Virus record (IMG/VR): IMGVR_UViG_3300021511_000006
Location: 1 to 64,000 of that record
Source of the DNA: a virus
Lineage: Duplodnaviria > Caudoviricetes
Direction: 5' to 3' (one strand)
Length of the DNA: 64,000 bases
The notes under the pieces are model-generated. The model worked only from the letters and a program-made list of their open reading frames with translations. It had not been told where the DNA came from and searched no databases. Positions 45,449 through 62,703 of this stretch are shown here, in pieces. The translations under genes and the position numbers were made by a program. The number at the start of each line of letters is the position of its first letter. Position 1 is the first letter of the stretch.

Positions 45449-46074
45449 ATGTTTGTCTCCAGTATTTGTTTTGTTTTCTTAAGAAACATGTCTCGAGATT
45501 CTTCTGAATCTCCATACTTAGTTAATAGTTTTGCGATAAACTCTGATAAATTAAAATCAAATAAAAACCACGTCTTATCAATAACTTTAAATGGTTTTTT
45601 CATTTTAACGTAAATATTCCCATCTCTGTGTAAATGTGGAAAAGTTGATGTTTTCCTATATGGTTTAGTAACATAATATTTTCTTGTTTTACAGGGTTTA
45701 GATCCTGTAAGAAACATGAGTATTTTACCATAGTCTATATATGTTTGTCGTTTATATTTAATCCATCTATAGCGATTAACAATCACAGCGTATTGGTTAT
45801 CAGCGTATTTTGCTATAATTGGATTACGTCTCCAAAACTTTTTCTTATCAACTCTACTAGTTGGAAACCAATCTCTCCAATCTCCAAAATCTCGCTCATA
45901 ATATCCAGAACCAAATCTGACTATATCTCCTTTTCTAATAGATAGTCTTTCAGAATCTTCTACTGTTTCATATCTTGTAGGATATTCTTGTCCAGTAAGG
46001 TGGAATCGAAAACGTCCACAAGAAGGACTATAAACATTATATGAGTTAAAACTCTCATGTTTCCAAGCTTCCAT
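45445..46074 (-). CDS. Basic hypothetical protein
   Basis: 209 aa; coupled to folE2 by TAATG. Confidence 0.6.
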   Translation of the reverse strand: MEAWKHESFNSYNVYSPSCGRFRFHLTGQEYPTRYETVEDSERLSIRKGDIVRFGSGYYERDFGDWRDWFPTSRVDKKKFWRRNPIIAKYADNQYAVIVNRYRWIKYKRQTYIDYGKILMFLTGSKPCKTRKYYVTKPYRKTSTFPHLHRDGNIYVKMKKPFKVIDKTWFLFDFNLSEFIAKLLTKYGDSEESRDMFLKKTKQILETNI

Positions 46075-46961
46075 TATAAGTAACGTTTCCCATCAAATCC
46101 TCCTGGGATTCCTTTCCAGTTGACTGCAATGGCTTCAGAAGTATGTATTGATTCTTCATGGCTACACTTAATAATCCAATCACGAATTCCGTCAATGTTA
46201 GTTAATGATTGAGATATAGCTCTTATCGCATCTTCAACAAACATAGGATTCTCACCTGCGACTCGAGCAATCTCCTGTTCATCAACTCTCTTAATAATTG
46301 GATATGGTTGCGTTGGTATTACGTTTTCAACGGCTTCAATAATATCCTCCAACCAAACATATTTATCAGTATAAGGATTAGCTTCAACCATTATATGAGC
46401 AAATGATCTTTGATTATGAGGGAATCCTTTTGTATCAAGAACACTACATAATTCAGCAGAGCATGGACAATATGAAGCATATTGAATTGTTGCTCCTTGA
46501 AAGAATCTGTAAACCAATCCAGGTTTTTTTGGTCCGGTTGGTTGTGTTACTTGAACCTCATATACCTGTCCTTCAAATCTACATTTATAATAGATAGGAA
46601 ATTGATTATCAGATATAATTGATTTTTTAATAATTGGCATTCTAAAATCGAATGTCATATACGCTCCGGCACCTCCAACATTTTCAAGCATTTTTTGTAA
46701 AATTTCTTTAATCAATGCGCTTTTTAATGGTAGATCTAAATATGGTTTTAATGTAAGTAGGAGTCTAGACATTGAGATGCCTTTAGTATCAGCATCAAGA
46801 CTAGTTCTTATAGCAACGTTTGCAATCATTTGATGAAATCCACCATACTTAGATTCAAGTTTAAATGGAACTTCAACATTTTCGACTCCTACTTGCATAA
46901 TAGGAATTTTGATATTTGGTTCTGTACATTGAATATCAGGTAAACATTTTTTATCTATCAT
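46074..46961 (-). CDS. folE2: GTP cyclohydrolase IB (FolE2)
   Basis: LPDIQ, QVGV, KGISMSRL, SYCPCS, HNQRS, NPMFVED and ESIH motifs. Confidence 0.92.
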   Translation of the reverse strand: MIDKKCLPDIQCTEPNIKIPIMQVGVENVEVPFKLESKYGGFHQMIANVAIRTSLDADTKGISMSRLLLTLKPYLDLPLKSALIKEILQKMLENVGGAGAYMTFDFRMPIIKKSIISDNQFPIYYKCRFEGQVYEVQVTQPTGPKKPGLVYRFFQGATIQYASYCPCSAELCSVLDTKGFPHNQRSFAHIMVEANPYTDKYVWLEDIIEAVENVIPTQPYPIIKRVDEQEIARVAGENPMFVEDAIRAISQSLTNIDGIRDWIIKCSHEESIHTSEAIAVNWKGIPGGFDGKRYL

Positions 46962-47424: not shown

Positions 47425-50421
47425 TTAATCAACTCCTATTACTGTTAGATATGAACTAAGTAATTTAACAGATTCGGGTACTGCATCTAATTCTTTACTA
47501 TCATCGGTTAGATTTGACTCAATGAATTTACGAATATAACTATTTTTCAAATCAATACAGTCAGATTTAGTTGTGAGAAACTCATGTAAATTAATTGGAG
47601 CATCGTGCCCAATCAAACATGCTGTTTCCATTTCACCACATCTTTGACCACCCTTATTCTTTCTGCCGCCAAGAGGTTGTAGTGTTCGTCTTGCATATGC
47701 TCCAATACCTCTTGCTGCAAGTTTCTCTTCTGCAATATGAACCATTCTAAAGAAATGAATGAATCCAACAGCGATTCGATTAGCCAAATGAACTTTAGAT
47801 AACGGATCATATATTTTATATTTAAATTCTGCTCCTGTAAATTTTAGGGCATCTTCAACTTGCTCCAATCTACATGATTGAAATGGAGGTTGGACGATGG
47901 TAAAATTTTGAATAAAGTCTTCCGTTATTGTTTTTGGAAGTTGTTCAAATAGTTGTTTAAAATACCATCCATCTTCTGTACAATCAATTATTCGTATAAA
48001 TTTTAGTAAGTATTTTCTTATGAGTTTCTGTGTTATATTCTCTTTGAGCATTTGTGACATTGATTGTTTTAGACAATCGACTGCCATAGATAAATGCATT
48101 TCGTATAACTGCCCAATATTCATTCTTGATATTATACCGAGAGGGTTAATACAGATATCTAAATGTCGCCCATCTGGTAGTTGTGGCATTTTATTATGAG
48201 GAACAATTCTGGAGATTACTCCTTTATTCCCATGTCTATTTGCCATTTTATCGCCTACTTTTACACGCCTGAAATGAACTCCATACATTTCAACATAAAG
48301 ACCATTTATCCTCTCACGTTTTCGTTTATACTTTCCGGCGAATGAGAATTTATCTAGATTATGATCTTTAATAGTTTTCATAGCTTGATCTTTAGGCATA
48401 ACTTTTTTGAGGATTTTTTGTAGATCTTTTTCCTTGTCTTGTTGTTTATCTAGTTGCCCTTCAATCCAATCTTTATATTCAGGTATTTCTGTATTCCATA
48501 AGTTACCGTATAAATTAATTTCAGATATTATATAGTTTTTTCGAGCTTCTAATGGAATACCCTCAGAGAAAACTGAATAATATTCGTCAGTGTTTAATTT
48601 TTTAAGAATAGCATATGGATTGCCTGCTTTAATTGTTTCAAGTTCTTCTGGTAATGGTTTATATTCGTCTTCTTTTAAAGAAAGAAGAACTTTATCTGGA
48701 GATAATGTGAATGACAAATCTTTATAGTGAACTGATGTTAATATATCATCATTAACCAGTCTATCTGAAATTACAATACCGTCTTCATAGTTATTTCCAT
48801 AATATACCATAACGCCTGTAAGCAAGTTTCTTCCAATGTTAATATTCCCGTCTTTACAAAAATTACTTTCTGCTAAAATATCTCCGGATTTAAATTTGTC
48901 ACCCGATTTAACATATATGTTCATAAAGTCCATGTGTTCAACATAGATTTTTCTATGCTGAACATCAAACAACTCAACGGTTTCGTCATTATATAGAACA
49001 ATGATATAGTTACTGTCAATATGGACTACTTCTCCATTCTTTTTAGCTGTCTTAACAAATTGTGTGTATTTTGTATATAGACCTTCACAACCAGAGCTTA
49101 TTAAAGGAGTATCAAATTCTCTTAACATAATTGATTGTCTCATCTGTGAAGATGCCATTTGCAATCTTGTTTGATCATCATGTTTAAGAAACGGAGTCAT
49201 TGAAACAGGAATCGAAATTGGATTATCTTCACAAATATCATCTGTAAATTTTAAGTTTTCATCAAGATGTACATTTGGAATCAGATTCTGTAAAACTCCA
49301 CAGTTGTCTCTATCTGGAGTGTCAACTGGGCATAAACGCCCAAACATAGTTGGACAAATATCTCTTAAATGTTTCGGAATATTTTCTCTTTTAAAACCAC
49401 CTGGTCCAAGTAGACTTATCCTTGATAATTTTGTAAGTTCTTCAATTGGGTTTATTGAGAAATCAAACTGAACAATATCTGAAACATTACAGTCTGATAA
49501 AATCTGGGTGGAGTTAATATTAAACTTTGGTTGTCTTGATGTTCTATTTGCAAAACATAAATCAAATATAATCTTTGATACTTTTCCAATGACAACATAT
49601 TCAAAACATCTTACCCGTTTATTTATAAATAGTGTATCATCAACAAATCCTGTTTTTAGAATTTCAGACAACTCTTCTAAAATAGAATCATACTGCATAA
49701 ACTTTGCTGTGAGTATATCAACTTTAGAAATTAGATCAATAGCATATAATATATCTTCGCCTTTTGACTTCGCATTATATCTAGAATACAATTTACCAAG
49801 TTCAAGAGTAAAATCATCAGTTGTGTATCCGATTGATTCTTCACAATAAGTTTTTAAATCAACTCTTAATAAATCATAAAGATTACTACTGCTTGGGTCA
49901 ATATCAAGGTCAAGTTCATATATTTTGGTAACTTCTTCAATACCATAGTACGCCAATAATATTAAAGAAAATGGAACTTTTTTACCCAAGAAACTGATCT
50001 GAATGTGCGGGATTTCTTTATCTTTAAATACCATTATAGTTGCTACATTTGTTCGTAGTTTTATACTTTCACCCCTTGTAACAATGGGGGTATCAAAAAG
50101 CTGAAATAAAGGGATTTTTCTTCTTCCATTAATATAAACATAGTTACCATCAATTAATTTGGGGATAAATATACTTATATCAATTTCAGAGCTTCCCTTT
50201 TGTAATTTAATAACCAATGTTTGTTTAAGAGTCTTGGCGAGCTCTCCTGATGAGAAACGAGAATCTTTAAGACTAATCTCGTTTATCTGAAATCCAATTT
50301 CTTCAACAGGTTTAACTATTTCTTGTACAGTAGATAAAATTTGATCATAATCTAGTTGTCGTATTGTGAAGATATTTTTATCTTCGTTGTGAATTGTAGA
50401 TATTGGATTAATTATTTTCAA
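47425..50421 (-). CDS. rpoB: Phage multisubunit RNA polymerase, beta-like subunit
   Basis: GRLCPVDTPD, MASSQMRQ, VGDKMANRHGNKG, NPLGIISRMNIGQ and GGQRCGEME motifs; 998 aa. Confidence 0.93.
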   Translation of the reverse strand: MKIINPISTIHNEDKNIFTIRQLDYDQILSTVQEIVKPVEEIGFQINEISLKDSRFSSGELAKTLKQTLVIKLQKGSSEIDISIFIPKLIDGNYVYINGRRKIPLFQLFDTPIVTRGESIKLRTNVATIMVFKDKEIPHIQISFLGKKVPFSLILLAYYGIEEVTKIYELDLDIDPSSSNLYDLLRVDLKTYCEESIGYTTDDFTLELGKLYSRYNAKSKGEDILYAIDLISKVDILTAKFMQYDSILEELSEILKTGFVDDTLFINKRVRCFEYVVIGKVSKIIFDLCFANRTSRQPKFNINSTQILSDCNVSDIVQFDFSINPIEELTKLSRISLLGPGGFKRENIPKHLRDICPTMFGRLCPVDTPDRDNCGVLQNLIPNVHLDENLKFTDDICEDNPISIPVSMTPFLKHDDQTRLQMASSQMRQSIMLREFDTPLISSGCEGLYTKYTQFVKTAKKNGEVVHIDSNYIIVLYNDETVELFDVQHRKIYVEHMDFMNIYVKSGDKFKSGDILAESNFCKDGNINIGRNLLTGVMVYYGNNYEDGIVISDRLVNDDILTSVHYKDLSFTLSPDKVLLSLKEDEYKPLPEELETIKAGNPYAILKKLNTDEYYSVFSEGIPLEARKNYIISEINLYGNLWNTEIPEYKDWIEGQLDKQQDKEKDLQKILKKVMPKDQAMKTIKDHNLDKFSFAGKYKRKRERINGLYVEMYGVHFRRVKVGDKMANRHGNKGVISRIVPHNKMPQLPDGRHLDICINPLGIISRMNIGQLYEMHLSMAVDCLKQSMSQMLKENITQKLIRKYLLKFIRIIDCTEDGWYFKQLFEQLPKTITEDFIQNFTIVQPPFQSCRLEQVEDALKFTGAEFKYKIYDPLSKVHLANRIAVGFIHFFRMVHIAEEKLAARGIGAYARRTLQPLGGRKNKGGQRCGEMETACLIGHDAPINLHEFLTTKSDCIDLKNSYIRKFIESNLTDDSKELDAVPESVKLLSSYLTVIGVD

Positions 50422-50423
50422 TG

Positions 50424-50609
50424 TTATATCCCCTTTTCTTTACAGTCTGATTTTAAAGCGTCCTCTAGTTTATCATCCTCAATATAATAAGGATCGCTAT
50501 TCATTCTTAGAACATTCATTATAATTTGAGTTAGTCGAAGATCCGGTGCATCATTCCAGATCTTCTCAACCAACCCTAATATACGTTTAATTCTAGCTGG
50601 ATCTCTCAT
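50424..50609 (-). CDS. Small protein of the MRDPxRI (DUF1040/YihD-like) type
   Basis: MRDPARIKRIL...W...PDLRLTQII. Confidence 0.65.
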   Translation of the reverse strand: MRDPARIKRILGLVEKIWNDAPDLRLTQIIMNVLRMNSDPYYIEDDKLEDALKSDCKEKGI

Positions 50610-53311
50610 GTAATTTTCTCTCCCTTAAGTATTTTATCCATAACTCCGGAATATCTTCCTTCATATAATATTCCTTGAAGAATAGACTTCTTTGGATTTG
50701 AAAATGCCATAGCAAGAATCCAACTTTCTCGGTTAGGTACAGATTGTACAGAGTAGAAATTTGGTATAATTTTTTCTCTATCTTCTATCAGTCTCCATTT
50801 TTTGTAATCTTTCCACATCAATTGTGTAACTACACATTCAAAATGTATGTGATGAATATCTTTATCATATACATCAAATAAAGCATCAACTATTTCGGTA
50901 TATGTTTTTCCTTTAAATTTATGTAATAATTCAGCAACAGATGCAAGATCTCCAATAATATCTCTTTGTTTCATGGAGTTTTCTTTATTTTCTTCTCCCT
51001 TAATTACTGCTGAACCTGAAGTATGAAAAGTTCTTAAAACTAATTGTGTTCCCCTCTCTCCTAATGTTTGAGCAGCAATAATACCAACAAATCGGCTATT
51101 TAAACTTTTATATAAATCTCCATAACACTTTTTACAGAGTCTATCAGATTTACATAAAATAGGACTTCGTATCTGAATTAATTTTCCAATTATATCTTTA
51201 TAATTATCTTGAGTAATTTTATATAGTGATGATTCATCTTCTGAAAGACACCATCTATTTACTAACATATGAGCCTTTCGTTCTGTTTTTACATCGACTT
51301 CTAATAAGTCTGTAGTGCCACAATCATCAAGATCTTGATCAATCTGTAAGTTAGCACATGTAAAAATGAGTTTCCTTGATAGATATCCGCTTGTGCCCGT
51401 ATTTAATGCAACATCTAAGAGACCTTTTCTACATCCATATGTTGAGAAGAAAAATTCTTTTTGATTCAAACCTTCAAGTAAAGAATTTTTAATTGGATGA
51501 TCTAAAATCTCTCCATCAAAGTTTGAAATGAATCCTCTGGATAATACAAGTTGTTTAACTTGATCCCAACTTCCCCTTGCGCCAGATTCTATCATATATG
51601 AATATTTAAATTTATCTCTAAGTTCATGAATCAAACTAGGATCTGAAAATGCAACAATTTGATCTCTTGTTTCCTTATGAGAATAAATATTATCTTTTAT
51701 TTTGGATATCCCTTCAATTTTACAATCTTGTAAAGACATAGTACATCCATATAAAGTTGCAAATTTGAATCCTATCCTTTTAATATTATCAAGAACCTGT
51801 ATAGTTATATCGCTAGAATATTTATCTTTAATATCATTAAGGATTGTAAGAAGTTCTTTATTAGCAACAAGACCTTCAACTATTGGATAATCTTCTGGAA
51901 GTTGTTTGTTAAATTCAGCTTGACCCAATGGAAGGCTTTTATTTTTAAACATAACTGTCTTATCTGAAAAGCTGGGTGATGTTAAATAATAAATTCCTAG
52001 TATTATATCTTGGCTTGGAGTTGTAGTAAGACCTTCATTTGAAGGGCTATTTAAATTAGAAGAAATTAAAATTTTCTTTAAAATCTCTTCTTTAGCTTCA
52101 TTAGTAACCGGAATATAAACTGCCATTTGATCTCCATCAAAATCTGCATTGAATGGAGGGCATGCTAAAGGATGTATTTTGATTACTTGATCTAACGTAA
52201 TCTTAATTTTAAAAGCAAGCATGCTCAATTTATGAAGAGATGGTTGTCTATTTAATATACAACATTCTTCACTTGTTATTTCTTCACAAACTTTTAATAG
52301 AACAGGTGAATAATTATCAATACATTGATCTACAAAATCAATCGCCTTATTAAGAAGTTTAAATTTACCAAGTTGAATGATTCTCTTGGCAATCGGAAGT
52401 TTAAATAATTCAAGTACCATTAAATATGGTAGTTTACACTCATATAGTGAAAGAGTTGGATCTGGAGTAATAACTGCGCGTCCAGAAAAATCAATTCTTT
52501 TACCAAGAATATTCCCTCTAATTAATCCTTCTTTTTTTGCCATCTTTTCCAAAATTCTGGTATACAACTCACTCACATCTTTTTGTAGTTGTTTGAAATA
52601 AGTATAGTAAAGAGCTTTATCTCGATGAATATCAATGATCGTATCTTTCATCGCTTCTTTCTTGGTGAGTATTTGGACATAGTAACGATTGATTTTGTCC
52701 ATTAGTTGTTTTGCTTCTCCAGAACTTTTTGATGTTGGTCTAAGATCAGGTGGGAGAACAATAATTTCGTCTATGAGCAGACTATTAATATTATTTAAAA
52801 TAATTTGCCATTCAGCAATTCCTTCTTCAATCATTTCTGTTGCAATGTTTTTAACAAGAACTTCAATAGCTTCTGCACGTTCCCATGTTTCTACTCCTTC
52901 TGGGATTTGTTCGGGTATAGGTGTAACAACAAGTTCATCTCCAGTTTTATAGAGAACGCTTTGATCATTTTTCATAAGATTATCAATTGCTTTTTTCAAA
53001 GTCTTCCCACCCAGATCTATCAGTAGATCATAAAATATTGGATTTACAACTGGTATTGGTATTTTGATTTTTGCAAATCTTTTTCTTCGAGCATCACTAT
53101 TTATAATATCAACTCCACAGTCATCACATTTGCCTCCAGATCTTGATACTCCATGATATGTACCACATTGACAAGTATAATTCCTCATTGGACCAAATAT
53201 TTGTTCAGAAAATAATCCAAATGGGTGAAACTTTTTCTTTCCAAATGTTTTTAGAGACGTCACTTCGTCTAAGGGTTCACAAAATGTTTCATAATCTAAT
53301 AACTTAGGCAT
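50606..53311 (-). CDS. rpoC: Phage multisubunit RNA polymerase, beta-prime-like (catalytic) subunit
   Basis: NADFDGDQMA active site; N-terminal CQCG...CDDC zinc finger; GKRIDFSGRAVI; LNRQPSLH; bridge helix RKGLLDVALNTGTSGYLSRKL; trigger loop LRTFH. Confidence 0.95.
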   Translation of the reverse strand: MPKLLDYETFCEPLDEVTSLKTFGKKKFHPFGLFSEQIFGPMRNYTCQCGTYHGVSRSGGKCDDCGVDIINSDARRKRFAKIKIPIPVVNPIFYDLLIDLGGKTLKKAIDNLMKNDQSVLYKTGDELVVTPIPEQIPEGVETWERAEAIEVLVKNIATEMIEEGIAEWQIILNNINSLLIDEIIVLPPDLRPTSKSSGEAKQLMDKINRYYVQILTKKEAMKDTIIDIHRDKALYYTYFKQLQKDVSELYTRILEKMAKKEGLIRGNILGKRIDFSGRAVITPDPTLSLYECKLPYLMVLELFKLPIAKRIIQLGKFKLLNKAIDFVDQCIDNYSPVLLKVCEEITSEECCILNRQPSLHKLSMLAFKIKITLDQVIKIHPLACPPFNADFDGDQMAVYIPVTNEAKEEILKKILISSNLNSPSNEGLTTTPSQDIILGIYYLTSPSFSDKTVMFKNKSLPLGQAEFNKQLPEDYPIVEGLVANKELLTILNDIKDKYSSDITIQVLDNIKRIGFKFATLYGCTMSLQDCKIEGISKIKDNIYSHKETRDQIVAFSDPSLIHELRDKFKYSYMIESGARGSWDQVKQLVLSRGFISNFDGEILDHPIKNSLLEGLNQKEFFFSTYGCRKGLLDVALNTGTSGYLSRKLIFTCANLQIDQDLDDCGTTDLLEVDVKTERKAHMLVNRWCLSEDESSLYKITQDNYKDIIGKLIQIRSPILCKSDRLCKKCYGDLYKSLNSRFVGIIAAQTLGERGTQLVLRTFHTSGSAVIKGEENKENSMKQRDIIGDLASVAELLHKFKGKTYTEIVDALFDVYDKDIHHIHFECVVTQLMWKDYKKWRLIEDREKIIPNFYSVQSVPNRESWILAMAFSNPKKSILQGILYEGRYSGVMDKILKGEKIT

Positions 53312-53314
53312 TTA

Positions 53315-53551
53315 TTAATCCCCCGCTTTGAATTTGTCGCTTATAAATTGTCCTATCTCACAGAAATGTTGACTTACTTTATTTGCAATCAATTGATCTA
53401 TATCAGGCATTACTTCATGCGCAATTATTTTTATATCATCTACTGCCAACTGTATCTGTGAGTTTTTGATAGCCTTATCGACTATGCGAACAATCTCTTG
53501 TTCTAACAATGATGGTGGTTCTGTTAAATTAAACTTTTTTGTCTTGGCCAT
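53315..53551 (-). CDS. Small helical hypothetical protein directly upstream of RNAP beta-prime
   Basis: 78 aa from MAKTKKF. Confidence 0.55.
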   Translation of the reverse strand: MAKTKKFNLTEPPSLLEQEIVRIVDKAIKNSQIQLAVDDIKIIAHEVMPDIDQLIANKVSQHFCEIGQFISDKFKAGD

Positions 53552-53747
53552 CTGACTCTCTTTCATTTATTTTTTGTTTTAAATTACCAATGCCTTTATC
53601 AACTAAGTCTTCTGCTGTTTGTGCAGTTCTATTAACCATCAAATTAAAAAATGATCTAACAGCTTTTTTACCATTACTTACAAGATCATCAATAATTGTT
53701 TCGACCTGATTTGACATTTCTTTATCACTCAATCGTTTTTCTTCCAT
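53529..53747 (-). CDS. Small amphipathic helical hypothetical protein
   Basis: 72 aa; overlaps both neighbours. Confidence 0.55.
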   Translation of the reverse strand: MEEKRLSDKEMSNQVETIIDDLVSNGKKAVRSFFNLMVNRTAQTAEDLVDKGIGNLKQKINERESDGQDKKV

Positions 53748-54091
53748 GTCCCTAGTACCCCTTGTTTTTTATATTTTATTTCGCCCCAAGGTGTAAAGTA
53801 ACAGTTGTCTAAGTTAAAGCAAGATAACATACTAATTATCATTGAGTTTGAGTTTTTTGTTAGTTCATGCTGTCTCAAACTATTTGGAATACAAAACTCT
53901 CCAGTCCTTGGAATTGCATTTGGATGTGGATTGTTTAAAATTACCATGTCGATTTTACCATCAACAGTTTTAACTATATAATTTTTAATCTCGAATTTTT
54001 TTGCTAATTTCGTAATTTGGTATAATTCATTTTTATAAATTAATTTTCTTGGCATAATAAATTCTCTTACTTCAACATTTAGTATTTCCAT
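53729..54091 (-). CDS. Small E2/UBC-like protein
   Basis: HPNAIPRTGEFC matches the UBC HPN-x(7-8)-C catalytic signature; TAATG-coupled to the ThiF-like gene. Confidence 0.55.
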   Translation of the reverse strand: MEILNVEVREFIMPRKLIYKNELYQITKLAKKFEIKNYIVKTVDGKIDMVILNNPHPNAIPRTGEFCIPNSLRQHELTKNSNSMIISMLSCFNLDNCYFTPWGEIKYKKQGVLGTWKKND

Positions 54092-54951
54092 TATGCAGCT
54101 CCTGTTTCAGGAATTAATTCAATATAAGTATTATTACCTTCATCAAAAACTGATACTACAAAATTATTAAAATCTTCTTGACAACTTACAATAGATGTCA
54201 ATACTGAAATTAAGTCTTTGCTATTCTTTAAAGCATTCACAGGAATTACTTTTTCAGAAATTGGATAAACTTTACTTCCAAGAAATAAAGTTAATTCTTT
54301 GTTTTTATTTATATCTAAAATTGGGACGATCTTATCCGGCAGATTTACAAATTTATCTTCGCCGATTACATTATCATAAATAACATCATAACAATTATTC
54401 TCAAAATATTTAACATAATCAAGTTCATATTTTTCGACAGTTTGAATTTCTATAAGAGCTGCAATTGAAACGTTATCAATCATCATTGAAATAATTGATG
54501 CTGCATGTCTTAAATCATTCTTTGTCAATTCCGTAATGTATTTTCCAGCTTGTTGTTTTTTATAAGTAACATTCTTTCTAAAATCAGCCATCAAGTATCT
54601 TGATGATATATAAAATCTTGCGTCAATTTCAGACTTTCGATCATATGTAAAATCTCGACAATCAATTACCAAATCTTCTTTTGGAAGTTTCGTAACACCT
54701 TCAATATATTCAGTTTGAAACGCCCAGATTTCTATATTTGGATTTTGATCCATTAAAATATCTTTTAAAGCTTCAACTTTTGGAATACCTACATCAATCT
54801 GTCTGTAGATAGAATTTTTTAAATTCTTCTTCTTAACTATATCGTGGTCTATTATGACTAGCTTTTCGGTGTTCTCTAAATTAGAGATTGCTTCTGCTGT
54901 GAACCCTCCAAGGGTTCCTAATCCAATAATTACAACGTTTTTAAATACCAC
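54091..54951 (-). CDS. ThiF/E1-like adenylating protein 2
   Basis: IIGLGTLGG, IDHDIV..KNL, DVGIPKVEALK and VIDCRD. Confidence 0.8.
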   Translation of the reverse strand: MVFKNVVIIGLGTLGGFTAEAISNLENTEKLVIIDHDIVKKKNLKNSIYRQIDVGIPKVEALKDILMDQNPNIEIWAFQTEYIEGVTKLPKEDLVIDCRDFTYDRKSEIDARFYISSRYLMADFRKNVTYKKQQAGKYITELTKNDLRHAASIISMMIDNVSIAALIEIQTVEKYELDYVKYFENNCYDVIYDNVIGEDKFVNLPDKIVPILDINKNKELTLFLGSKVYPISEKVIPVNALKNSKDLISVLTSIVSCQEDFNNFVVSVFDEGNNTYIELIPETGAA

Positions 54952-54983
54952 GTTTTATAGTCTCCTTTTCAATCATTATTTTT

Positions 54984-55009
54984 TGGGGGGAGTTAAAAGC
55001 ATCCCCCCA
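54984..55009. other. G/C-run hairpin without U-tract
   Basis: TGGGGGGA/TCCCCCCA stem just after the 55016 stop. Confidence 0.6.
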
Positions 55010-55015
55010 TAAGAA

Positions 55016-55603
55016 TTAAGCCAATCTTGAGTCTAACTCCTCACTATGATTTTCAATTGGTTCTGTAAATATAATTGCTCTTCTTATTAGTTCTTGTTCG
55101 TCATCTCCAACTGGGGTAGGTCTATAATGAGATTTATATTTATATAGCGAGTTGGCTAATTTGACAGGATAACTCACAGGAATCTCATATGAATATTTTT
55201 TATATCCTCTGGTTGTTCTGACAGTTATAGGCATGCTCGGATCTATTCGTTTGAGTTCTTCTGCAATTTCATTCCTGAAATGGAGCTCATCGTCATTTGA
55301 TTTTATCTTTACACCACGTTTTACGAGCTCGTCATCACGACCAGAACCATTTATTTTCCAGTTGTTCTCTTTTCTGACTAGAGCTTTAATAGCACGACCA
55401 AATGCTTTGTTCTTTCCCTCAGATTTAGAAAATGTATCTAAGAGAGAACATATAGATACTCCTCGTGCTTCAATTCGCTGTTTTGAGGAGTTTATAAAAA
55501 CACAAGTTGTAAATGCATTATTTACAACTGGACTGTTGACAAAGTAAAATGAAATTTTATCAACGTCATTGTCTTGTAAGATTTTTTGTATGTCTTCATT
55601 CAT
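55016..55603 (-). CDS. Hypothetical protein inside the ubiquitin-like cassette
   Basis: ARGVSICSLLDTFSKSEGKNKAFGRA, a pattern common in small phage proteins. Confidence 0.65.
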   Translation of the reverse strand: MNEDIQKILQDNDVDKISFYFVNSPVVNNAFTTCVFINSSKQRIEARGVSICSLLDTFSKSEGKNKAFGRAIKALVRKENNWKINGSGRDDELVKRGVKIKSNDDELHFRNEIAEELKRIDPSMPITVRTTRGYKKYSYEIPVSYPVKLANSLYKYKSHYRPTPVGDDEQELIRRAIIFTEPIENHSEELDSRLA

Positions 55604-55624
55604 GGTTTCATTCCTTTATCTGGT

Positions 55625-55644
55625 GGGGGGTCCGAAGACCCCCC
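55625..55644 (-). other. Stable cUUCGg tetraloop hairpin 3' of the Ubl gene, without U-tract
   Basis: Minus strand GGGGGGTC-TTCG-GACCCCCC. Confidence 0.7.
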
Positions 55645-55654
55645 AACAGTTAAG

Positions 55655-56122
55655 TTAGCAACCCTTCTTGCCTGCTGGTTTCAGGAATTCCAGATTGTCA
55701 CCGTTTTTCAGTACGTAATCAGCATCGACTGCTTTACCATTTACCAGACCGGTAGACAGACGATCAACGTTCAGTACTTCTCTCAGGAAGTCCCCAACAT
55801 CTTTTACTGTCTTCCCTGCGACTGGGAAATTACCCGAAGATGCACCACATGATACATGAATGGTAGTAGTAGCTCTGCTACCGAAAGGTGCTCCTGGTTT
55901 GGTCAGCGTACTTTGCCCGGAAAATTCCAGTCCGGTCAGTTTACCACCTGCAGTTTTAGCAATGGTTGCTCCTTTTTTACCGTACTGAGCCATAATGGCG
56001 TTAACAACATCGTCCTTCGGTTTCTTGGTAACACCGACGATACCCAGTTCATCAACACACATTCTTTTCAGATCTTTTGAAGTTTTTGCCTCTAAGAAAT
56101 CTCGATTAAAACTTTTACCCAT
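55655..56122 (-). CDS. Ubiquitin-like (beta-grasp) protein with N-terminal Rho-N/HeH-like domain, ending GKKG-C
   Basis: IHVSCGA...GKTVKDV...LNV...VNG...DYVLKNGDNLEFLKPAGKKGC; located between E1 genes. Confidence 0.8.
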   Translation of the reverse strand: MGKSFNRDFLEAKTSKDLKRMCVDELGIVGVTKKPKDDVVNAIMAQYGKKGATIAKTAGGKLTGLEFSGQSTLTKPGAPFGSRATTTIHVSCGASSGNFPVAGKTVKDVGDFLREVLNVDRLSTGLVNGKAVDADYVLKNGDNLEFLKPAGKKGC

Positions 56123-56137
56123 GATAATAAGTCTCCT

Positions 56138-56821
56138 TCATTTCACTATTCGGATTTTTGCGTCTGTAGTCATACTAAGCATATCAAAGTAGATTTCAGA
56201 CCGTTCATACTGTTCTTTTATAACCACGTTATAAAAAGCCCAGCACATCAATGTTGCTACCCCCAAATTTGTAAAATACAACTGAGGGTCTGATTGTGAA
56301 AGTTCTTCACAACTCATTTCTTCGGGTAACTTATCGTTAGGGTTTGCAATTTCCGGATGGTAAGCACATAAGTCCGGAGTTAAATCTTTTCCTTCCTTCC
56401 GGACATAAATCTGTACATTACCATCTGTAAATTCGTTCCCACCAGAGATTAAAATAACATCTTGTAAAGTTTTACAGTAATTAGAAACGATCATTCTGGT
56501 TTTGTGATTATCAACACATAGAAATACAATATCGCCTTCTCTTATAGTTTCCACAATATTTTTTTCGTTTACGAAGGCTTCATAAGAATCAAACCGTAGC
56601 TCACTAAATTTTATCTGAAGTTCAGTGCCTTTAATATCGGCTTTATTCCCCATGCGGGTAAACTCTTGCCTCTCATAGTTTTTATGCTCATATTCATCTC
56701 CATCTACTAATAGAATATCTGCGGCTAAATCCTTTGAATAATTCAGAAATCTGCATATTCTTTCAGAGAGAATAGAACCTACTCCCCCAAGTCCAATAAT
56801 AGTTATAGGTAATCTAGTCAC
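56138..56821 (-). CDS. ThiF/E1-like activating enzyme 1 (PRTRC ThiF-like)
   Basis: IIGLGGVG, VDGD...NYERQ, CVDNHKTR, SGGN and SCEEL...PQLYFTN with a candidate catalytic Cys. Confidence 0.9.
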   Translation of the reverse strand: MTRLPITIIGLGGVGSILSERICRFLNYSKDLAADILLVDGDEYEHKNYERQEFTRMGNKADIKGTELQIKFSELRFDSYEAFVNEKNIVETIREGDIVFLCVDNHKTRMIVSNYCKTLQDVILISGGNEFTDGNVQIYVRKEGKDLTPDLCAYHPEIANPNDKLPEEMSCEELSQSDPQLYFTNLGVATLMCWAFYNVVIKEQYERSEIYFDMLSMTTDAKIRIVK

Positions 56822-58370
56822 TACTTCTCTCCCTTGAAAATACTCGTCTAAACATGTTTTTTAATGACGCGTTAGGTTTCTCAGGAATTGGAGTGTAACT
56901 GGATCCTGGTTCTTTTATTTTTTCAATAGTTTCTTCCTTGGCTGCTAAGTCTAGTGCAGCAATATTAGCTTCTTCTTTTTCGGAATCTAGAAATGTTCCT
57001 GCATCTTTTTCAAGTTGTTCTTCTAATAATTCTTTTGAAGAAACTTCTGGTATAAATTCGCTATAGCAAAAAGGGCATATTGCGTCTTCTTGAACTGCAC
57101 GAAAGCTGCTATTACATGATGGACATACTACGTATTCAGATTTAGGTTGATCTTTTTCAAATAAGTGATCAAATTCATCAGATGGAGCATAACTGTTAAG
57201 TAGAGTATCATCATCCACAAGAATTAGGTGTTCATCAGTTAAACAATTAGAACATATGGTTGTACCTTCAAGACCTTCTTCTTTAACCAATTCACCACAT
57301 TGATTACATTGGTATATATCCTCTGTGAAGTCTTCCTTCTCTATCTCATTTGTTAGTTTACACTCTCTATGAACACATGTTGCGCAAGGAACAAAGTCAC
57401 CCTCTGGCGTATGTGGAGGAAATTTAAGAGGTGATTTATTACCAGGCCCAACATTTAATGGAGATACTCGTGTACCAGTTACATGACGTACGATACCTGT
57501 TCGTTTCCAGGCATCTGAGTTATAATGTTGTCCCCAACCAGCATATCCTCGGGAACCATAACCATAACCATATTGATGTCCCCAACTCTTATATGTGTAA
57601 ACTCCTTTGCTTACCATCTTCATCCATTTTTTGTTAAAGACTCGATCACTTGGAGATACATTCACATCATAGCGCCTATCAAACTTTCGATAGCTATAAA
57701 ATTTTGGTGTTGCTGTTGCGTCTTCAACTAGTTTGCCATCTTGTACTTTATAGATTGTTCTTACAGCTTTATTATCGACTTCATTTGTTTCTGCCATAAG
57801 AATTAATTTGTCAATATATTCATCTGGATCAACCATAACTCTATGGCCATTTGCTACAATTGATGAAGAGATGCTTGGATACTCTTCATCAAGATCGCCC
57901 AATGTAATATGAAGACCGTCAAAGTGCTCTTCATCATCATCATCAACACCAGAATGAAATGCTGACATATTCCCATGACTATGAATAGTACCGATCATTG
58001 TCATTCCTTCAATAGTAATTCCTTTATCGTAGTCACAGGATGCACCTGCAACTTTTTGTACCGGCGGAATGATTTTATATTTTCCTGTTTCTTCATTATA
58101 AAACAGGAGCACAATAGATTCTGATCTATATTCTTCATATACTGCTTTAAAAAATCCCATGACTTTAGCAATCCATTTACCAGGAATTTTAGTAATATGC
58201 ATTTTAGCCATAGTAGTAACACTATTTAGAATAGAGATATTTTTAACGGGCGCAAGACTTTCCATGACCCCAAGTTTTTTCTTTAGATACACACCTTCTT
58301 TTGCAATAATATAAAATACATCATCCTTAGGCATTTCATTTTGACCATCATTTAGGATTACTTTGAACAT
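56814..58370 (-). CDS. JAB/MPN+ metalloprotease with C-terminal zinc fingers
   Basis: E...GTIHSHGNMSAFHSGVD JAMM motif; several CxxC pairs in the C-terminal half. Confidence 0.88.
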   Translation of the reverse strand: MFKVILNDGQNEMPKDDVFYIIAKEGVYLKKKLGVMESLAPVKNISILNSVTTMAKMHITKIPGKWIAKVMGFFKAVYEEYRSESIVLLFYNEETGKYKIIPPVQKVAGASCDYDKGITIEGMTMIGTIHSHGNMSAFHSGVDDDDEEHFDGLHITLGDLDEEYPSISSSIVANGHRVMVDPDEYIDKLILMAETNEVDNKAVRTIYKVQDGKLVEDATATPKFYSYRKFDRRYDVNVSPSDRVFNKKWMKMVSKGVYTYKSWGHQYGYGYGSRGYAGWGQHYNSDAWKRTGIVRHVTGTRVSPLNVGPGNKSPLKFPPHTPEGDFVPCATCVHRECKLTNEIEKEDFTEDIYQCNQCGELVKEEGLEGTTICSNCLTDEHLILVDDDTLLNSYAPSDEFDHLFEKDQPKSEYVVCPSCNSSFRAVQEDAICPFCYSEFIPEVSSKELLEEQLEKDAGTFLDSEKEEANIAALDLAAKEETIEKIKEPGSSYTPIPEKPNASLKNMFRRVFSRERSSD

Positions 58371-60933
58371 TTACTATACTCCTCTCTTCGTTTATAAGTC
58401 TTAATTCAGATGCTTCACATGTAAAGAAGTGACCATGTAAATTTGGCCACGCTCTAACTATACCCGCTTCATTTTGAATTTTTGGTCCAATTCTTGGATT
58501 CGGAATACAATCTAATATAGAATTAGCTGTAATATATCTATCTAAACTATAATAATCAGCATATGATGTAAAGTATGCAAAATCTAATACTTTAAGACCA
58601 CCTACTCCATTAGTAAAGACAAACCATCCCTTTCGATTACTATACTCATTAATACCTTGAATAATATCACCAGGTTGATACTTAATTTTTGATACATCAA
58701 TTGAAGCATGCTTTAATGATGGCCATCTTTTTGACTTAATTGTAGTTTTTTGGAATTTTGTTAATACGTCGCTGTACCATAAAGTACAACAATTTGAGCA
58801 CAGAACAAGGGGTTCTGGTCCTCCCGTATCAGTTATAAATCCAATAATAATATTTATATCTTTCTTTGGGAATTGTGAAATGCTGGCTTCTTTAGCTTTG
58901 ATCTTTGTTCCTGCAATCAATTTACCAAATTTATTTGTAATCTTTCTTATTCTACCAACATAAATGATTCCATTTGCTCCATCAACATATCTTTCTTGAT
59001 GTAGAGTCCCTTCTTTATCAGCTAATATGAAAAATATATCACCAATAGCTGAGTCGAATTTAAACCCTTGAATTACTTTGACTGACAACATATTAACTGG
59101 ATTATGCCAATCTGAAACAACTACTTTATCTCCTATAGTAAATTCAATATCCATATCAAAACTCTGGATACGAAATTTATCTTCCCCCAACATATATTTT
59201 TTTATTTCTGGAGGAATTGGTTTAATAAGTCTAGTTCTGTTTCCTTCAAATATAACGCCAGCAGGAGAACCAAACACACTATTATTTAATAATTTTGTCT
59301 CATTTATATCTTTTATAGCTAGCATTTTTCGACCCACTCTAAATACTGGTGGTAGAGGTTTAAGTTTATCAATTTCATATAGACTTTTAGCTCGTTTTGC
59401 TGCTGATGAGTTTAAGGTAAGATTATATGATCTTATACTTTGATTAACATGTTTCATTTCAATATGTAATTGATTTCTACTGGTAGAAATTTGATTAAAT
59501 TTAACAACGACACCATTTTGAAACGGAACGTTTGCAATAGTTGGTACATAGACATATCGTTTGTTCTTTTTCAACATAATATTTTCATATTTTGGTTTTG
59601 ACGTATCAAATATCTCTCCCTCAGTATTTTCCAAAATATAAAATCCATCTCCGAATCTACCTTCATGAAATCCATCTGCAGATTTACGAACAAAGGAAAC
59701 CCTTTTATATGTAATGCCCCCGATGGCATTTTTCATAATTAGAATATCACCTTCTTTAATCTTTACTCCATTTTTCAGAATTCCCGTTTCTTCAAATCTG
59801 AGTTTCTTTGTTTCTTTAAGGAGATATTTTGTAAACATTTTGGTTTTCTTAAATATAATAAGTCTTCCATCATCTCGTTCAACTCTTATATATTTTACAT
59901 CTCCACTATCCATGAAGCTAATAAGTGAATTAATATAACAAAGAGATTTACCATTTTTAATATAAAAAGGATCTCCAACATGAACATAAAAAGTTTCATT
60001 TAAATATACGCCCGATGCAACATCATAAAATAAACTAAATTTCTTTCTAGATCTTGGAGTAGGTTTTTCATCCTTGCCTGTACTTAAAGGTTGACTAAAC
60101 ATACTAGCAAGGCTGTGATATTGAACATCATTTTGTTTTGATATGCTATAAGTTCGTTTTACTTCTTCTATTGCTTGTCCTATATTCATAGGAATTTTAA
60201 CCCAATCAACATTATAAATAAACATTGGATTTAATTGTGACAATGCTTGCCACTCCATATAAGAATTAACCCCAGCAATTTTTGAATATGAGTTATAGTT
60301 ATACATAAAGTCAGTATTAAATTCAGATCCCCAAAAGACATTGATTGCTTTTTCTACTGTTGAATTTAATGATTGTGTCCGACCATCTGCTCTATCTCCA
60401 AAACAAATATACTGATTATCAGCTATATTTAGTAATGGTATTTTAAGCAAGTAATCAGCTAACCCCGAGAGTCTTGCAATCCTAAGATATGCTTGCCCAC
60501 CAGATATATCATAATAATCTGATATATATAGAAGAAATATAACATACGGAAATGCCAATGTAAATTGCCTTGGACCTCCCTTCTCAGCGAAGTTTTTCTT
60601 ATATTTGTATTCTTCTAATTTTCCTTCTGCTTTTAATTTATCAACTTCAGCATGAAAATGCATATTAATGCTGACAGTTCTAAATGCCGGAGGTTCTTCA
60701 ACAACAATAATATGACCTTTGTTTACTTTTTCCATATATCTACAATTTGGTGGAATAACTACTGGTGTTTCGCTACCAAATTCCAGACTTATACGTCTTA
60801 GATAGTCAGGTGTTAATAACACTTTTTTATTAATTTTTGGGGTTGATTCCCCCTTCATTGATTTATCATATTCAGAAGAATAAAGATGTGTATATTTCTG
60901 ATTAATTCGTATTTCATTTTGTAAATCGAGCAT
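58348..60933 (-). CDS. Prokaryotic E2-like (Prok-E2 family D-like) domain fused to a long C-terminal region
   Basis: LAFPYVIF...PLLNI...YICFG...FWGSEFNTD pattern with candidate catalytic Cys; adjacent to JAB, E1 and Ubl. Confidence 0.7.
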   Translation of the reverse strand: MLDLQNEIRINQKYTHLYSSEYDKSMKGESTPKINKKVLLTPDYLRRISLEFGSETPVVIPPNCRYMEKVNKGHIIVVEEPPAFRTVSINMHFHAEVDKLKAEGKLEEYKYKKNFAEKGGPRQFTLAFPYVIFLLYISDYYDISGGQAYLRIARLSGLADYLLKIPLLNIADNQYICFGDRADGRTQSLNSTVEKAINVFWGSEFNTDFMYNYNSYSKIAGVNSYMEWQALSQLNPMFIYNVDWVKIPMNIGQAIEEVKRTYSISKQNDVQYHSLASMFSQPLSTGKDEKPTPRSRKKFSLFYDVASGVYLNETFYVHVGDPFYIKNGKSLCYINSLISFMDSGDVKYIRVERDDGRLIIFKKTKMFTKYLLKETKKLRFEETGILKNGVKIKEGDILIMKNAIGGITYKRVSFVRKSADGFHEGRFGDGFYILENTEGEIFDTSKPKYENIMLKKNKRYVYVPTIANVPFQNGVVVKFNQISTSRNQLHIEMKHVNQSIRSYNLTLNSSAAKRAKSLYEIDKLKPLPPVFRVGRKMLAIKDINETKLLNNSVFGSPAGVIFEGNRTRLIKPIPPEIKKYMLGEDKFRIQSFDMDIEFTIGDKVVVSDWHNPVNMLSVKVIQGFKFDSAIGDIFFILADKEGTLHQERYVDGANGIIYVGRIRKITNKFGKLIAGTKIKAKEASISQFPKKDINIIIGFITDTGGPEPLVLCSNCCTLWYSDVLTKFQKTTIKSKRWPSLKHASIDVSKIKYQPGDIIQGINEYSNRKGWFVFTNGVGGLKVLDFAYFTSYADYYSLDRYITANSILDCIPNPRIGPKIQNEAGIVRAWPNLHGHFFTCEASELRLINEERSIVNVQSNPK

Positions 60934-61311
60934 TTATTCACCCCTTAAAAATTTATACTGTTTAGCATATCCAGTTAGTATTTGCTCTGGTCTATGATCA
61001 TTAATTTCCCAAACTCTTTGCCTCTTTATTGATGGACTCTCTGGATTCTTTTGCAGTTCTTTTTCACTTGTTATAAATAGAACTGCTAGATATACATCTT
61101 CACTTTCACGTTCTAATGATAAGAATGAAATTTCTCCTTGAGTCCGACCTGGTACTTCCAGTGTAATAAATATATTTGGTCCTTTTGGAAGTATTGTTAT
61201 ATGCTCAATGTTGCCCGTTTCTTGCTCAAATATTTGATCGCATAATATTCTGATTTTTTCAAGTACATCATCACTTTTGATTTCTGCAAGAAGTTTCTTT
61301 AAGATACCCAC
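60934..61311 (-). CDS. Hypothetical protein
   Basis: 125 aa; GTG start with AAAGGAG Shine-Dalgarno. Confidence 0.6.
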   Translation of the reverse strand: MGILKKLLAEIKSDDVLEKIRILCDQIFEQETGNIEHITILPKGPNIFITLEVPGRTQGEISFLSLERESEDVYLAVLFITSEKELQKNPESPSIKRQRVWEINDHRPEQILTGYAKQYKFLRGE

Positions 61312-61325
61312 TTATAAGTTCTCCT

Positions 61326-61652
61326 TTACGGTTGTTTCTTTGTATAATATCTTCTCTCTTTAGTATCCATCCATTCAATCCGATCAAATGGAACTGACCT
61401 CCAACCTTTCATATTCAGATCATAAACATGCATAATTTTATTTTTCTGAATAAGTTTCAGGATTTTTTCAATGTTTACAGATTTTGGATGGTCTCTTTTT
61501 GGAATTTGTTTAAAATCCAAAGTACACTTCATGATACGATTCGAACCATCTTTCTTTGTAAATCTTATAATTACTTGCTTCTCATCATATACTTTTTTCC
61601 AGAACTGTATGGCACTTACAATTATATTAGTATCTAATTCTTTTTCTGCCAT
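61326..61652 (-). CDS. WYL_2 (DUF2693)-like SH3-fold protein
   Basis: FTKKDG...MKCTL...VYDL...GWRS. Confidence 0.75.
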   Translation of the reverse strand: MAEKELDTNIIVSAIQFWKKVYDEKQVIIRFTKKDGSNRIMKCTLDFKQIPKRDHPKSVNIEKILKLIQKNKIMHVYDLNMKGWRSVPFDRIEWMDTKERRYYTKKQP

Positions 61653-61655
61653 AGT

Positions 61656-62702
61656 TTAATCCTCCCGTTTATCTGAGTGAACTAGTGTGCCCACTTCCTT
61701 ATTTGTTCTATCAAAATATTGACTCATCATTAAGCATGAATGATTACAGAGGTCACAAAGACGCTTTTTATCTGTTCTTATTCCAGTTAATACATCACTG
61801 GACAAAAGTTGTGGATATGCTGAATCGAATAGATTTTTTATGGTGTTATATGGAGTTATTACTCCTTTAATTCTTAAACATAATCTTATTGTTCCATCAG
61901 AGTCAATTGTTAAGTTATGTATACCATCCTCAAGCTCGCAGTCAAAATTTGATGGTAATGTATCAAACATTCTTGGAATTAAAATATCTTTCATATGAAC
62001 TAACAATGAATGGTCGTGCATAATATCAAGCAACTGTCCTGCTAAACTTAATGTTGGTTGAACTAAAAGATTCTTATCCCTAATATTTGAAAAATCGTAA
62101 TAGATGTTTTTTGTAATATCTACAAATGTAATATCGCTATATATTTCTTCCTTACTTAAATTACAGATAAGTTGGTGTAAGAAATGTTGATTATGTTTCA
62201 TAACTGTTATTTCAGCTACAACATCTTTAACCAACCCTGCTGCTTGAAGTTCTTTTAATCTTTGTAATCCTTCAATACTTTTTCTGACTCGATCTTTGTT
62301 GAGTTCAGGCTCGTTAAAAATAGGATCAACAGAACTTGTAAAACCTTCTATATGACCTACTTTATTAAATAGTTTTATCAATGCAGGTTGAACTTCAGGT
62401 GTGTTATTACTGATTATTGTATAATATATTTCATTATCATTACAATAATTAATAATGTCTGCAAGGTCTGGTCTTAATAATGGCTCGCCTCCATAAAAGA
62501 TATTGAAGACATTTGGATTATGTATTTTTAATTTTCCTAATGTTTCAATAACAACTTCAGTTGGCATTTCGTTTTTGATATAATGTTTCATATCAGGATA
62601 GCAAGAAGGTTTATTTTCATAGTTTCGAACTATACCACAGTAATCACATTTCAAATTGCACTTCCTTGTGAGAAGCCAATTTACAATTCTAACTTGACTC
62701 AT
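61656..62702 (-). CDS. Radical SAM enzyme with Cys-rich (SPASM/twitch-like) C-terminus
   Basis: CNLKCDYC, GGEPLL, IISN, C...DSDGTIRLC and CDLCNHSC; start MSQVRIV after a GGAG Shine-Dalgarno. Confidence 0.9.
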   Translation of the reverse strand: MSQVRIVNWLLTRKCNLKCDYCGIVRNYENKPSCYPDMKHYIKNEMPTEVVIETLGKLKIHNPNVFNIFYGGEPLLRPDLADIINYCNDNEIYYTIISNNTPEVQPALIKLFNKVGHIEGFTSSVDPIFNEPELNKDRVRKSIEGLQRLKELQAAGLVKDVVAEITVMKHNQHFLHQLICNLSKEEIYSDITFVDITKNIYYDFSNIRDKNLLVQPTLSLAGQLLDIMHDHSLLVHMKDILIPRMFDTLPSNFDCELEDGIHNLTIDSDGTIRLCLRIKGVITPYNTIKNLFDSAYPQLLSSDVLTGIRTDKKRLCDLCNHSCLMMSQYFDRTNKEVGTLVHSDKRED

Positions 62703-62703
62703 A

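Follow-up and report, generated by a model that had tools for sequence, protein, structure and literature searches.

Work on ubiquitin-like conjugation in prokaryotes has to date concerned the defence of bacteria against phages, in the CBASS Cap2, Bil, and Bub systems. In type II CBASS, Cap2 attaches the CD-NTase through the C-terminus of the CD-NTase itself. Eukaryotic E1 enzymes end in the ubiquitin-fold domain (UFD), which recruits E2 enzymes. The E1 of the Bub system has no Cys, and the invariant Tyr370 of its crossover loop is essential (PMC11601596). In the Bil system, BilA carries a C-terminal Ala beyond the reactive Gly, and this residue is removed by the Bil deubiquitinase (PMC10557695). 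In operon types 6c and 6d, the E2-like proteins of bacteria do not have the classical His (Iyer, Burroughs and Aravind 2006, PMC1779556). In this study, two adjacent genes, herein referred to as E1b and E2s, were analyzed in phage DNA of 64,000 nucleotides (positions 1 to 64,000 of the IMG/VR record IMGVR_UViG_3300021511_000006; this whole stretch is referred to as the window). The window is an AT-rich segment of a tailed jumbo-phage-like genome that includes a tail sheath gene and a multisubunit RNA polymerase, and the source lineage of the gene pair is uncultured jumbo phages. E1b and E2s may form a self-contained ubiquitin-like tagging module located beside a PRTRC-like cassette for a ubiquitin-like protein (Ubl); we give this reading a probability of about 45%.

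A sequence-only reading of this DNA had placed two open reading frames (ORFs) on the minus strand at 53729-54951, joined by TAATG, and the sequence agrees with it. The Shine-Dalgarno sequence AGGAG is located at 54099-54103, 9 bases 5' of the E2s ATG and within the final codons of E1b. A one-base stop/start overlap or an abutment was found at the E1b-E2s junction in 22 of the 24 related loci. E1b is located immediately 5' of E2s in all related loci obtained that reach both genes; in L037 and L038, one short E2s-like ORF lies between them. The features of the pair are the following.

54091..54951, minus strand: E1b, a Cys-less ThiF/E1-like protein of 286 amino acids (aa) whose C-terminal domain is tag-like; it starts with GTG, preceded by AAGGAG
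54424..54951, minus strand: E1 adenylation domain (residues 1-176), supported by fold matches and invariant columns
54523..54582, minus strand: probable crossover-loop region (residues 124-143), without a conserved Cys; Tyr130, Gly136, and Tyr138 invariant
54364..54417, minus strand: disordered linker (residues 179-196), predicted local distance difference test (pLDDT) below 50, length differing among homologues
54094..54363, minus strand: C-terminal domain (residues 197-286), in which two helices each precede a pair of strands and a tail of five residues ends the domain
54094..54108, minus strand: C-terminal tail E-T-G-A-A, directly before the stop codon; all lineages examined have TGAA or TGGA here
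54089..54093, minus strand: TAATG stop/start overlap; the E1b TAA (54091-54093) shares a base with the E2s ATG (54089-54091)
53729..54091, minus strand: E2s, a predicted minimal UBC-like E2 of 120 aa, from its ORF, homologues, and model
53891..53926, minus strand: HPN-x8-C active-site-like motif HPNAIPRTGEFC, His56-Cys67 (residues 56-67), conserved in three alignments
53786..53818, minus strand: second block conserved in the alignments, FNLDxCYFxPW at residues 92-102, following the long helix

By analogy, the closest working counterpart of this pair would be Cap2 acting on the CD-NTase, here split into two proteins and with the substrate tail within the E1. The E1 domain of Cap2 is the best structural match of E1b (7tsq_A, Z 19.0), the tag would in both cases be the C-terminus of a larger protein with a small final residue, and the E1 has as partners a JAB peptidase (Cap3 in CBASS) and a Cys carrier of the E2 type. 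Cap2, however, is one E2-E1 polypeptide, whereas the phage proteins are encoded by separate genes, the E1 followed by the E2. The presumed substrate tail is on the E1 itself, and no CD-NTase or effector family was found among the cassette proteins in Pfam and PADLOC scans. E1b also differs from Cap2 in having no conserved Cys, and its gene belongs to a phage core block rather than to a bacterial defence island. Bub shares with this locus an E1 without the catalytic Cys, Tyr130 and Tyr138 of E1b being invariant in the corresponding region, and BubCD is among the structural matches of both the E2s and E1b models. The Bub E2, in contrast to E2s with its Cys67 and HPN, works with a Ser-His pair and forms oxyester intermediates, and the fusion partner of the Bub E1 is a JAB domain where E1b has a tag-like domain (PMC11601596).

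The E2s family and its HPN...Cys motif

No HPN-x(7,8)-C motif other than HPNAIPRTGEFC is present in any of the six reading frames of the window. A single occurrence alone could be due to chance; conservation of His56 and Cys67, as well as of Pro57 and Asn58, argues that it is not. Besides 72 close homologues, a profile search in a database of 1.84 billion representatives revealed a family of at least 279 clusters at E ≤1e-3, including 159 at E ≤1e-10. HPN, Pro61, Cys67, and the second block FNLDxCYFxPW are invariant in 40 close relatives. Among 33 sequences with identity down to 30%, the invariant residues are His56, Pro57, Asn58, Pro61, Cys67, and Cys97, the last of these being invariant in the near clade only and not across the wider family. 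Pro14, His56, and Cys67 are invariant in 71 representatives with identity down to ~20%, in which Pro57 and Asn58 reach a conservation of at least 90%. The spacing claimed in the sequence-only reading to be that of eukaryotic-type UBC is borne out as HPN-x8-C, conserved in these 71 representatives. Divergent members carry HPNA[ND]PDTGE[FL]CLDE, which is nearer to the canonical UBC HPNxxxxGxICLD than the window copy is. Unlike the E2-like proteins of operon types 6c and 6d, the E2s family keeps the classical His (PMC1779556).

The AlphaFold2 model of E2s (pLDDT 90.9) has, in order, a beta-meander, the HPN loop, the Cys, a short helix, and a long helix. Its first element is the strand 3-8, and the final helix stops at residue 89, followed by short strands only; neither the UBC N-terminal helix alpha-1 nor the C-terminal helices alpha-3 and alpha-4 are present. 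Residues 1-110 of the model pair with residues ~30-140 of UBC chains having 144-200 residues; judging by position, we take the last two UBC helices to be the parts without a counterpart in E2s. A Foldseek search of the PDB retrieved mainly UBC E2s, at E 0.2-1, and re-alignment of the top PDB chains of Foldseek by VIA-align placed UBC E2s in all of the best 50 positions (Z 4.0-4.9). UBC E2s also lead in a VIA-align scan of 48,161 representative chains made without the Foldseek pre-filter: 1yrv has Z 5.0 over 94 residues, followed by UbcH7, UBE2K, and UBE2S, while UEV, RWD, and BubCD rank lower. The best match in BFVD is a giant-virus E2, at E 0.084. Overall, the structural alignments of E2s with UBC have Z 4.0-5.0 over 82-94 residues, at a root-mean-square deviation of 3.3-4.6 A.

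Sequence profile searches of the PDB with E2s retrieved three chains in total, two of which are UBC proteins, Pex4 (5nkz) and UBE2U (1yrv); both alignments register on HPN...Cys. E2s resembles canonical UBC E2s in the order of the structural elements and in the Cys following HPN after 8 residues, as in Pex4 (5nkz); the HPN-to-Cys spacing of UBE2K equals that of Pex4. Canonical UBC E2s are also the best structural matches of E2s. The differences are the length of 120 aa, the missing N-terminal helix in the model, and the block NLDxCYFxPW, which is its own. E2s is probably a minimal member of the UBC-like superfold, constituting a family of its own outside PF00179. It is kept outside PF00179 because the Z-scores are low, UQ_con is unmatched, the N-terminal helix is missing, and UBC is aligned only at ~30-140. 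The sequence-only reading had made its UBC assignment depend on motif conservation and on a Foldseek search of the predicted fold. Both were examined, and the assignment stood insofar as HPN and Cys are kept and the fold is nearest to UBC; the Z-scores of only 4-5 and the lack of a UQ_con match count against it.

E2s is not covered by any Pfam, PHROGs, NCBIfam, or PADLOC family. The GenBank phage collection contains no protein match for E2s and no DNA match for the window region 50000-62000, and nothing usable in the ESM Atlas matched E2s. Ten longer proteins of the E2s family, analyzed for fusion partners, have no Pfam domains. Some homologues (P0004; L036 = GCA_017610225.1) were deposited within GenBank metagenome-assembled genomes, one of them labelled Candidatus Pacearchaeota; the presence of phage contigs in cellular metagenome-assembled genomes is probably a binning error.

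Several distant lineages have additional E2s-like copies, arranged in tandem or encoded by small genes of their own (P0206, P0273, P0325, and a 97-aa ORF at L037:7724-8017). HPN-like residues are kept in these copies, and the Cys is lost or shifted; as an analogy, the occurrence of such second, Cys-lost copies recalls the eukaryotic E2/UEV pairs. A Cys-to-Asp variant of E2s (P0277) was found on a 1.2-kb contig.

E1b: adenylation domain and C-terminal tail

The sequence-only reading described E1b as a ThiF-like protein without the SCxE Cys region of the other E1 of the locus (E1a, 56138-56821). This was confirmed: Cys171 of SCxE is invariant in E1a, and the sole invariant Cys of E1b is Cys98 in DCRD, position 124 being Cys or Phe. 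In total, 325 homologues of E1b were found. Pfam ThiF matches E1b with 55.9 bits (cut-off 28.1; E 4.4e-15), at residues 5-116 only. A half ThiF domain was considered on this ground and rejected, since the fold matches show the domain to be complete, to ~181. According to the AlphaFold2 model (pLDDT 86.6; predicted template modelling score 0.83), E1b has a complete E1 adenylation fold to about residue 181. The fold matches span model residues 1-181 to 1-203 and reach no further into the C-terminal domain. Z-scores in VIA-align are 12.6-19.0 for 23 E1-superfamily structures and at most 10.3 for unrelated Rossmann folds. After the Cap2 E1 domain, the matches include MoeB (17.1), AclA (17.1), Atg7 (16.7), SAE1 (16.7), APPBP1 (16.6), MccB (16.5), UBA5 (16.4), PaaA (15.8), BubCD (15.4), and TcdA (14.1). 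PADLOC 'E1-E2' models of Cap2 match E1b at 4e-11, over the first ~100 residues only, and the GenBank phage collection yielded only weak N-terminal matches.

The presence of MccB, AclA, PaaA, and TcdA in this list would also suit a non-tagging function, in which E1b modifies a peptide or a nucleotide as these enzymes do and the UBC likeness of E2s is convergent. The low fold scores of E2s, its lack of a match to the UQ_con hidden Markov model, and the radical SAM and GTP cyclohydrolase genes within the same conserved block fit such a function. Three structure libraries and two profile searches nevertheless point to UBC for E2s, with HPN...Cys aligned, and the surrounding cassette encodes, besides a JAB peptidase and a Ubl, an E1 with the Cys and an E2-D-like protein, so that a non-tagging function appears highly improbable.

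The residues invariant in 37 E1b sequences with identity down to 35% are GxGxxG (G10, G12, and G15), Asp35, Asp37, Asn43, Asn46, Lys58, DCRD (97-100), Arg105 and further Arg residues, Tyr130, Gly136, and Tyr138. The Arg of NLxRQ is replaced by the invariant Asn46 (NLKNS, residues 43-47), at which E1a has NYERQ in the alignment. The roles that we assume for the nucleotide-site residues, among them a ribose Asp and a Mg-binding Asp, are taken from the alignment with E1a and from general knowledge of MoeB. In the model, a loop is located between the strand 119-123 and the helix 144-159, and we infer that it (residues 124-143) is the probable crossover loop. E1a and E1b are not recent paralogues, as judged from their sequences (BLASTP E 0.34).

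Asn46 in place of the Arg and the absence of a conserved Cys are the features that one would expect if E1b and E2s were regulatory pseudo-enzymes, serving as a scaffold, a decoy, or UEV-like partners that tune the system of E1a, E2-D, JAB, and Ubl. Alternatively, they could block a ubiquitin-like defence of the host, for example Bil or CBASS Cap2; Cap2-type E1 domains are the closest matches of E1b, and the Cys-lost E2s-like copies in related phages resemble UEV-type partners. The idea of a pseudo-E1 scaffold or regulator, raised in the sequence-only reading, does not hold as a case of decay, given the full E1 fold with Z 19 and the invariant GxGxxG, Asp35, Lys58, and DCRD; the regulatory role is retained as a rival. 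We consider it improbable: the invariant polar residues of E1b, like the conservation of His56 and Cys67 over at least 279 clusters, suggest that the chemistry is retained, and the pair has a fixed position in a core block by the RNA polymerase genes, unlike fast-changing counter-defence genes.

The C-terminal domain of the ThiF-like protein, described as distinct in the sequence-only reading, is real and covers residues 197-286 beyond the disordered linker. DSSP assigns to it the helices 208-215 and 244-255 and the strands 220-225, 230-236, 264-271, and 274-281, at pLDDT 84-95. By the order of its elements, the modelled domain is compatible with a minimal beta-grasp. Its end is its most conserved part: Thr283, Gly284, and Ala286 are invariant in the 37 E1b sequences. 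E1b ends with ...ELIPETGAA or ...LLFVTGGA in 21 of the 21 loci of the first set, and still with ...ETGAA in the distant loci L035, L036, L037, and L040, in which E2s is 23-28% identical. The tail is modelled at pLDDT ~85, beyond the linker at <50. Nothing usable was found in the ESM Atlas for the C-terminal part of E1b.

The Thr, Gly, Ala, and Ala codons of the tail occur in 3-4 synonymous forms each among 22 loci. Because all four codons vary synonymously, the tail is selected as protein and not merely as a ribosome-binding site; conservation solely for the embedded E2s ribosome-binding site was rejected on this ground. A protease degron of the ssrA kind was considered for the terminal Ala-Ala; it leaves the invariant Thr-Gly unexplained. 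A built-in second tag is suggested because the C-terminal domain of E1b itself carries TG[AG]A in every lineage examined. In the two-branch cascade proposed in the sequence-only reading, the second branch is favoured by these data, but its version with one Ubl and two routes overlooks this TG[AG]A-tailed domain.

The version with one Ubl corresponds to an accessory E1/E2 pair, in which the C-terminal domain of E1b would be a UFD docking E2s and the pair would provide a second exit for the 155-aa Ubl, with E1b working by itself or paired with E1a in a heterodimer in which E1b is the Cys-less subunit. The layout of E1b, with an adenylation domain, a hinge, and a beta-rich C-terminus, places its last domain where eukaryotic E1s have the UFD: the domain is likewise small and hinged at the E1 C-terminus, and the cognate E2 is encoded adjacently. 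BilD has no such domain (PMC10557695). The likeness is one of element order only, and UFDs have no conserved Gly-containing terminal tail, so that the invariant Thr-Gly-x-Ala stays unexplained. E1a could provide the invariant Cys absent from E1b, and the inactive partner subunits SAE1 and APPBP1 are among the E1b matches (Z 16.7 and 16.6), yet E1b differs from typical inactive adenylation domains in retaining GxGxxG, Asp35, Lys58, and DCRD, and its kinship with E1a is distant. The E1b gene directly follows the Ubl gene in the distant L035 to L037 and L040, which suits a shared Ubl. E2s, on the other hand, does not have the N-terminal helix, the usual UFD-binding part. An accessory pair of this kind is rather unlikely.

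The surrounding cassette in related phages

The genes around the pair are the following, in descending coordinates.

58348..60933, minus strand: 861-aa protein with a weak Prok-E2_D-like region (PF14460 3.7e-4, below cut-off)
56814..58370, minus strand: JAB/JAMM peptidase, 518 aa (Prok-JAB 3.1e-5; NCBIfam PRTRC_A 3.9e-12)
56138..56821, minus strand: E1a, a canonical small E1 of 227 aa (Pfam ThiF 1.1e-16; NCBIfam PRTRC_ThiF 6.4e-9)
55655..56122, minus strand: free ThiS/MoaD-like Ubl, 155 aa, ending in ...LEFLKPAGKKG-C (weak TGS, ThiS, and MoaD matches)
55016..55603: 195-aa gene between Ubl and E1b, matching no family
53315-53747: two small ORFs (72 and 83 aa) between E2s and beta', matching no family
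47425..53311, minus strand: phage multisubunit RNA polymerase, immediately downstream, with the beta' gene at 50606-53311 and the beta gene at 47425-50421, recognized by Pfam Rpb1 and Rpb2 domains

The gene order is radical SAM, two small genes, E2-D-like, JAB, E1a, Ubl, the 195-aa gene in some clades, E1b, E2s, the small ORFs, beta', and beta. The cassette order is the same in all related contigs spanning the region, collected from IMG/VR, ENA, JGI, NCBI, and Logan assemblies, at beta' identity down to 57%, and it persists at E2s identity down to about 25-31%. The JAB, E1a, Ubl, and E2-D-like neighbours correspond to the Ubl/JAB/E1/E2 operon type described as 6d, whereas the E1b-E2s pair has no counterpart in that description (PMC1779556).

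By the NCBIfam matches of E1a and JAB, the cassette is linked in its first half to the 'ParB-related, ThiF-related cassette' (PRTRC) of plasmids and integrative and conjugative elements. E1a has invariant Cys171 (SCxE), Arg51-Gln52 (NxxRQ), and Asp104-Asn105. The weak Prok-E2_D match of the 861-aa protein recurs in L035. The Ubl tail ...AGxKG, with the final Cys present or not, is conserved in 20 loci; the Ubl of most relatives ends in ...LEFLKPAG[KR]KG, and a subset that includes the window copy adds one Cys (KG-C). Since this Cys is found in a subset only, trimming by JAB would be required in some lineages only. The 195-aa gene was found by sequence match only in some clades, and E1b comes directly after Ubl in L035, L036, L037, and L040. 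The 83-aa ORF is conserved in most relatives, and the 72-aa ORF in the closer ones only.

The cassette is always preceded by a radical SAM gene and two small genes, one of them WYL_2-like (window 60934-62738; L001:1358-3161). A type-2 GTP cyclohydrolase I (PF02649) is located just downstream of the polymerase beta gene in L001, L037, and L038, and its counterpart in the window, by position only, would be 46074-46961. Both enzymes, the radical SAM protein and the GTP cyclohydrolase, could act in a pathway that modifies nucleotides or DNA. The 934-aa protein encoded at window 1287-4091, with its collagen triple-helix repeats and BclA C-terminal-like domain, is probably a virion fibre or surface filament. 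L034 (IMGVR_UViG_3300001782_000005), with 277,131 bp and direct terminal repeats, is rated complete and is a potential reference genome of the lineage.

Proposed mechanism and significance

In the proposed tagging module, we infer the catalytic activity, the tail as the substrate, the transfer route, and the target. E1b would act as a Cys-less adenylating enzyme of the E1 type and would adenylate its own C-terminus (...TGAA on the linker-borne beta-grasp-like domain), either in cis or between the protomers of a dimer. Before this step, the E1b tail may be shortened to Gly284 by the JAB peptidase, much as the Bil deubiquitinase does with BilA (PMC10557695). The activated tail would then be passed to Cys67 of E2s, directly from the adenylate or, with Bub as the precedent, via a Tyr of the crossover loop, and from Cys67 to a target lysine through the HPN site of E2s. 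E1b or its tag domain would thereby become covalently attached to the target. In a more specific version, which we consider doubtful, E1b would be a self-tagging E1, and the covalent target of the whole enzyme or of its tag domain would be a protein of the phage or the host; the adjacent RNA polymerase and a virion component are possible targets.

Several points weigh against the tagging module. Without the canonical phosphate-binding Arg, as judged from its sequence, E1b may not adenylate. Its tail terminates in Ala-Ala or Gly-Ala and not in Gly-Gly. The putative beta-grasp identity of residues 197-286 is based solely on the order of the predicted secondary structures: hhalign of this domain with the cassette Ubl gave a probability of 0.2%, with no sequence similarity, and no relevant sequence match to it was found in the PDB. 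For E2s, Z-scores of 4-5 between the model and UBC can mean a common arrangement only. Pfam UQ_con (PF00179) had no matches, at E up to 10, in the window E2s and 39 close relatives, and none in four related phage records. UQ_con was the top family in the list for one of the 71 distant E2s representatives, at E 0.0033, below the cut-off.

No published description of this phage E1b/E2s system was found in the literature searched. Two additions are absent from the searched libraries and papers: an E1 with a tag-like C-terminus and an E2 of 110-120 residues with HPN...Cys. The mini-E2 keeps the classical HPN...Cys that is mostly missing in the bacterial E2-like proteins described earlier, and an HPN-type mini-E2 family would bear on the origin of the classical E2 active sites. 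If active, the pair would be a compact two-protein model for minimal E1-to-E2 transfer without an E1 cysteine, and it could reveal the proteins that the phage needs tagged during infection. A self-tagging E1, if true, would be the first self-acting E1-Ubl fusion. The jumbo phage lineage maintains its own conjugation machinery at a fixed site beside the RNA polymerase genes; if the proposed function is true, this would be the first ubiquitin-like conjugation that serves the phage's own programme and not the cell against phages.

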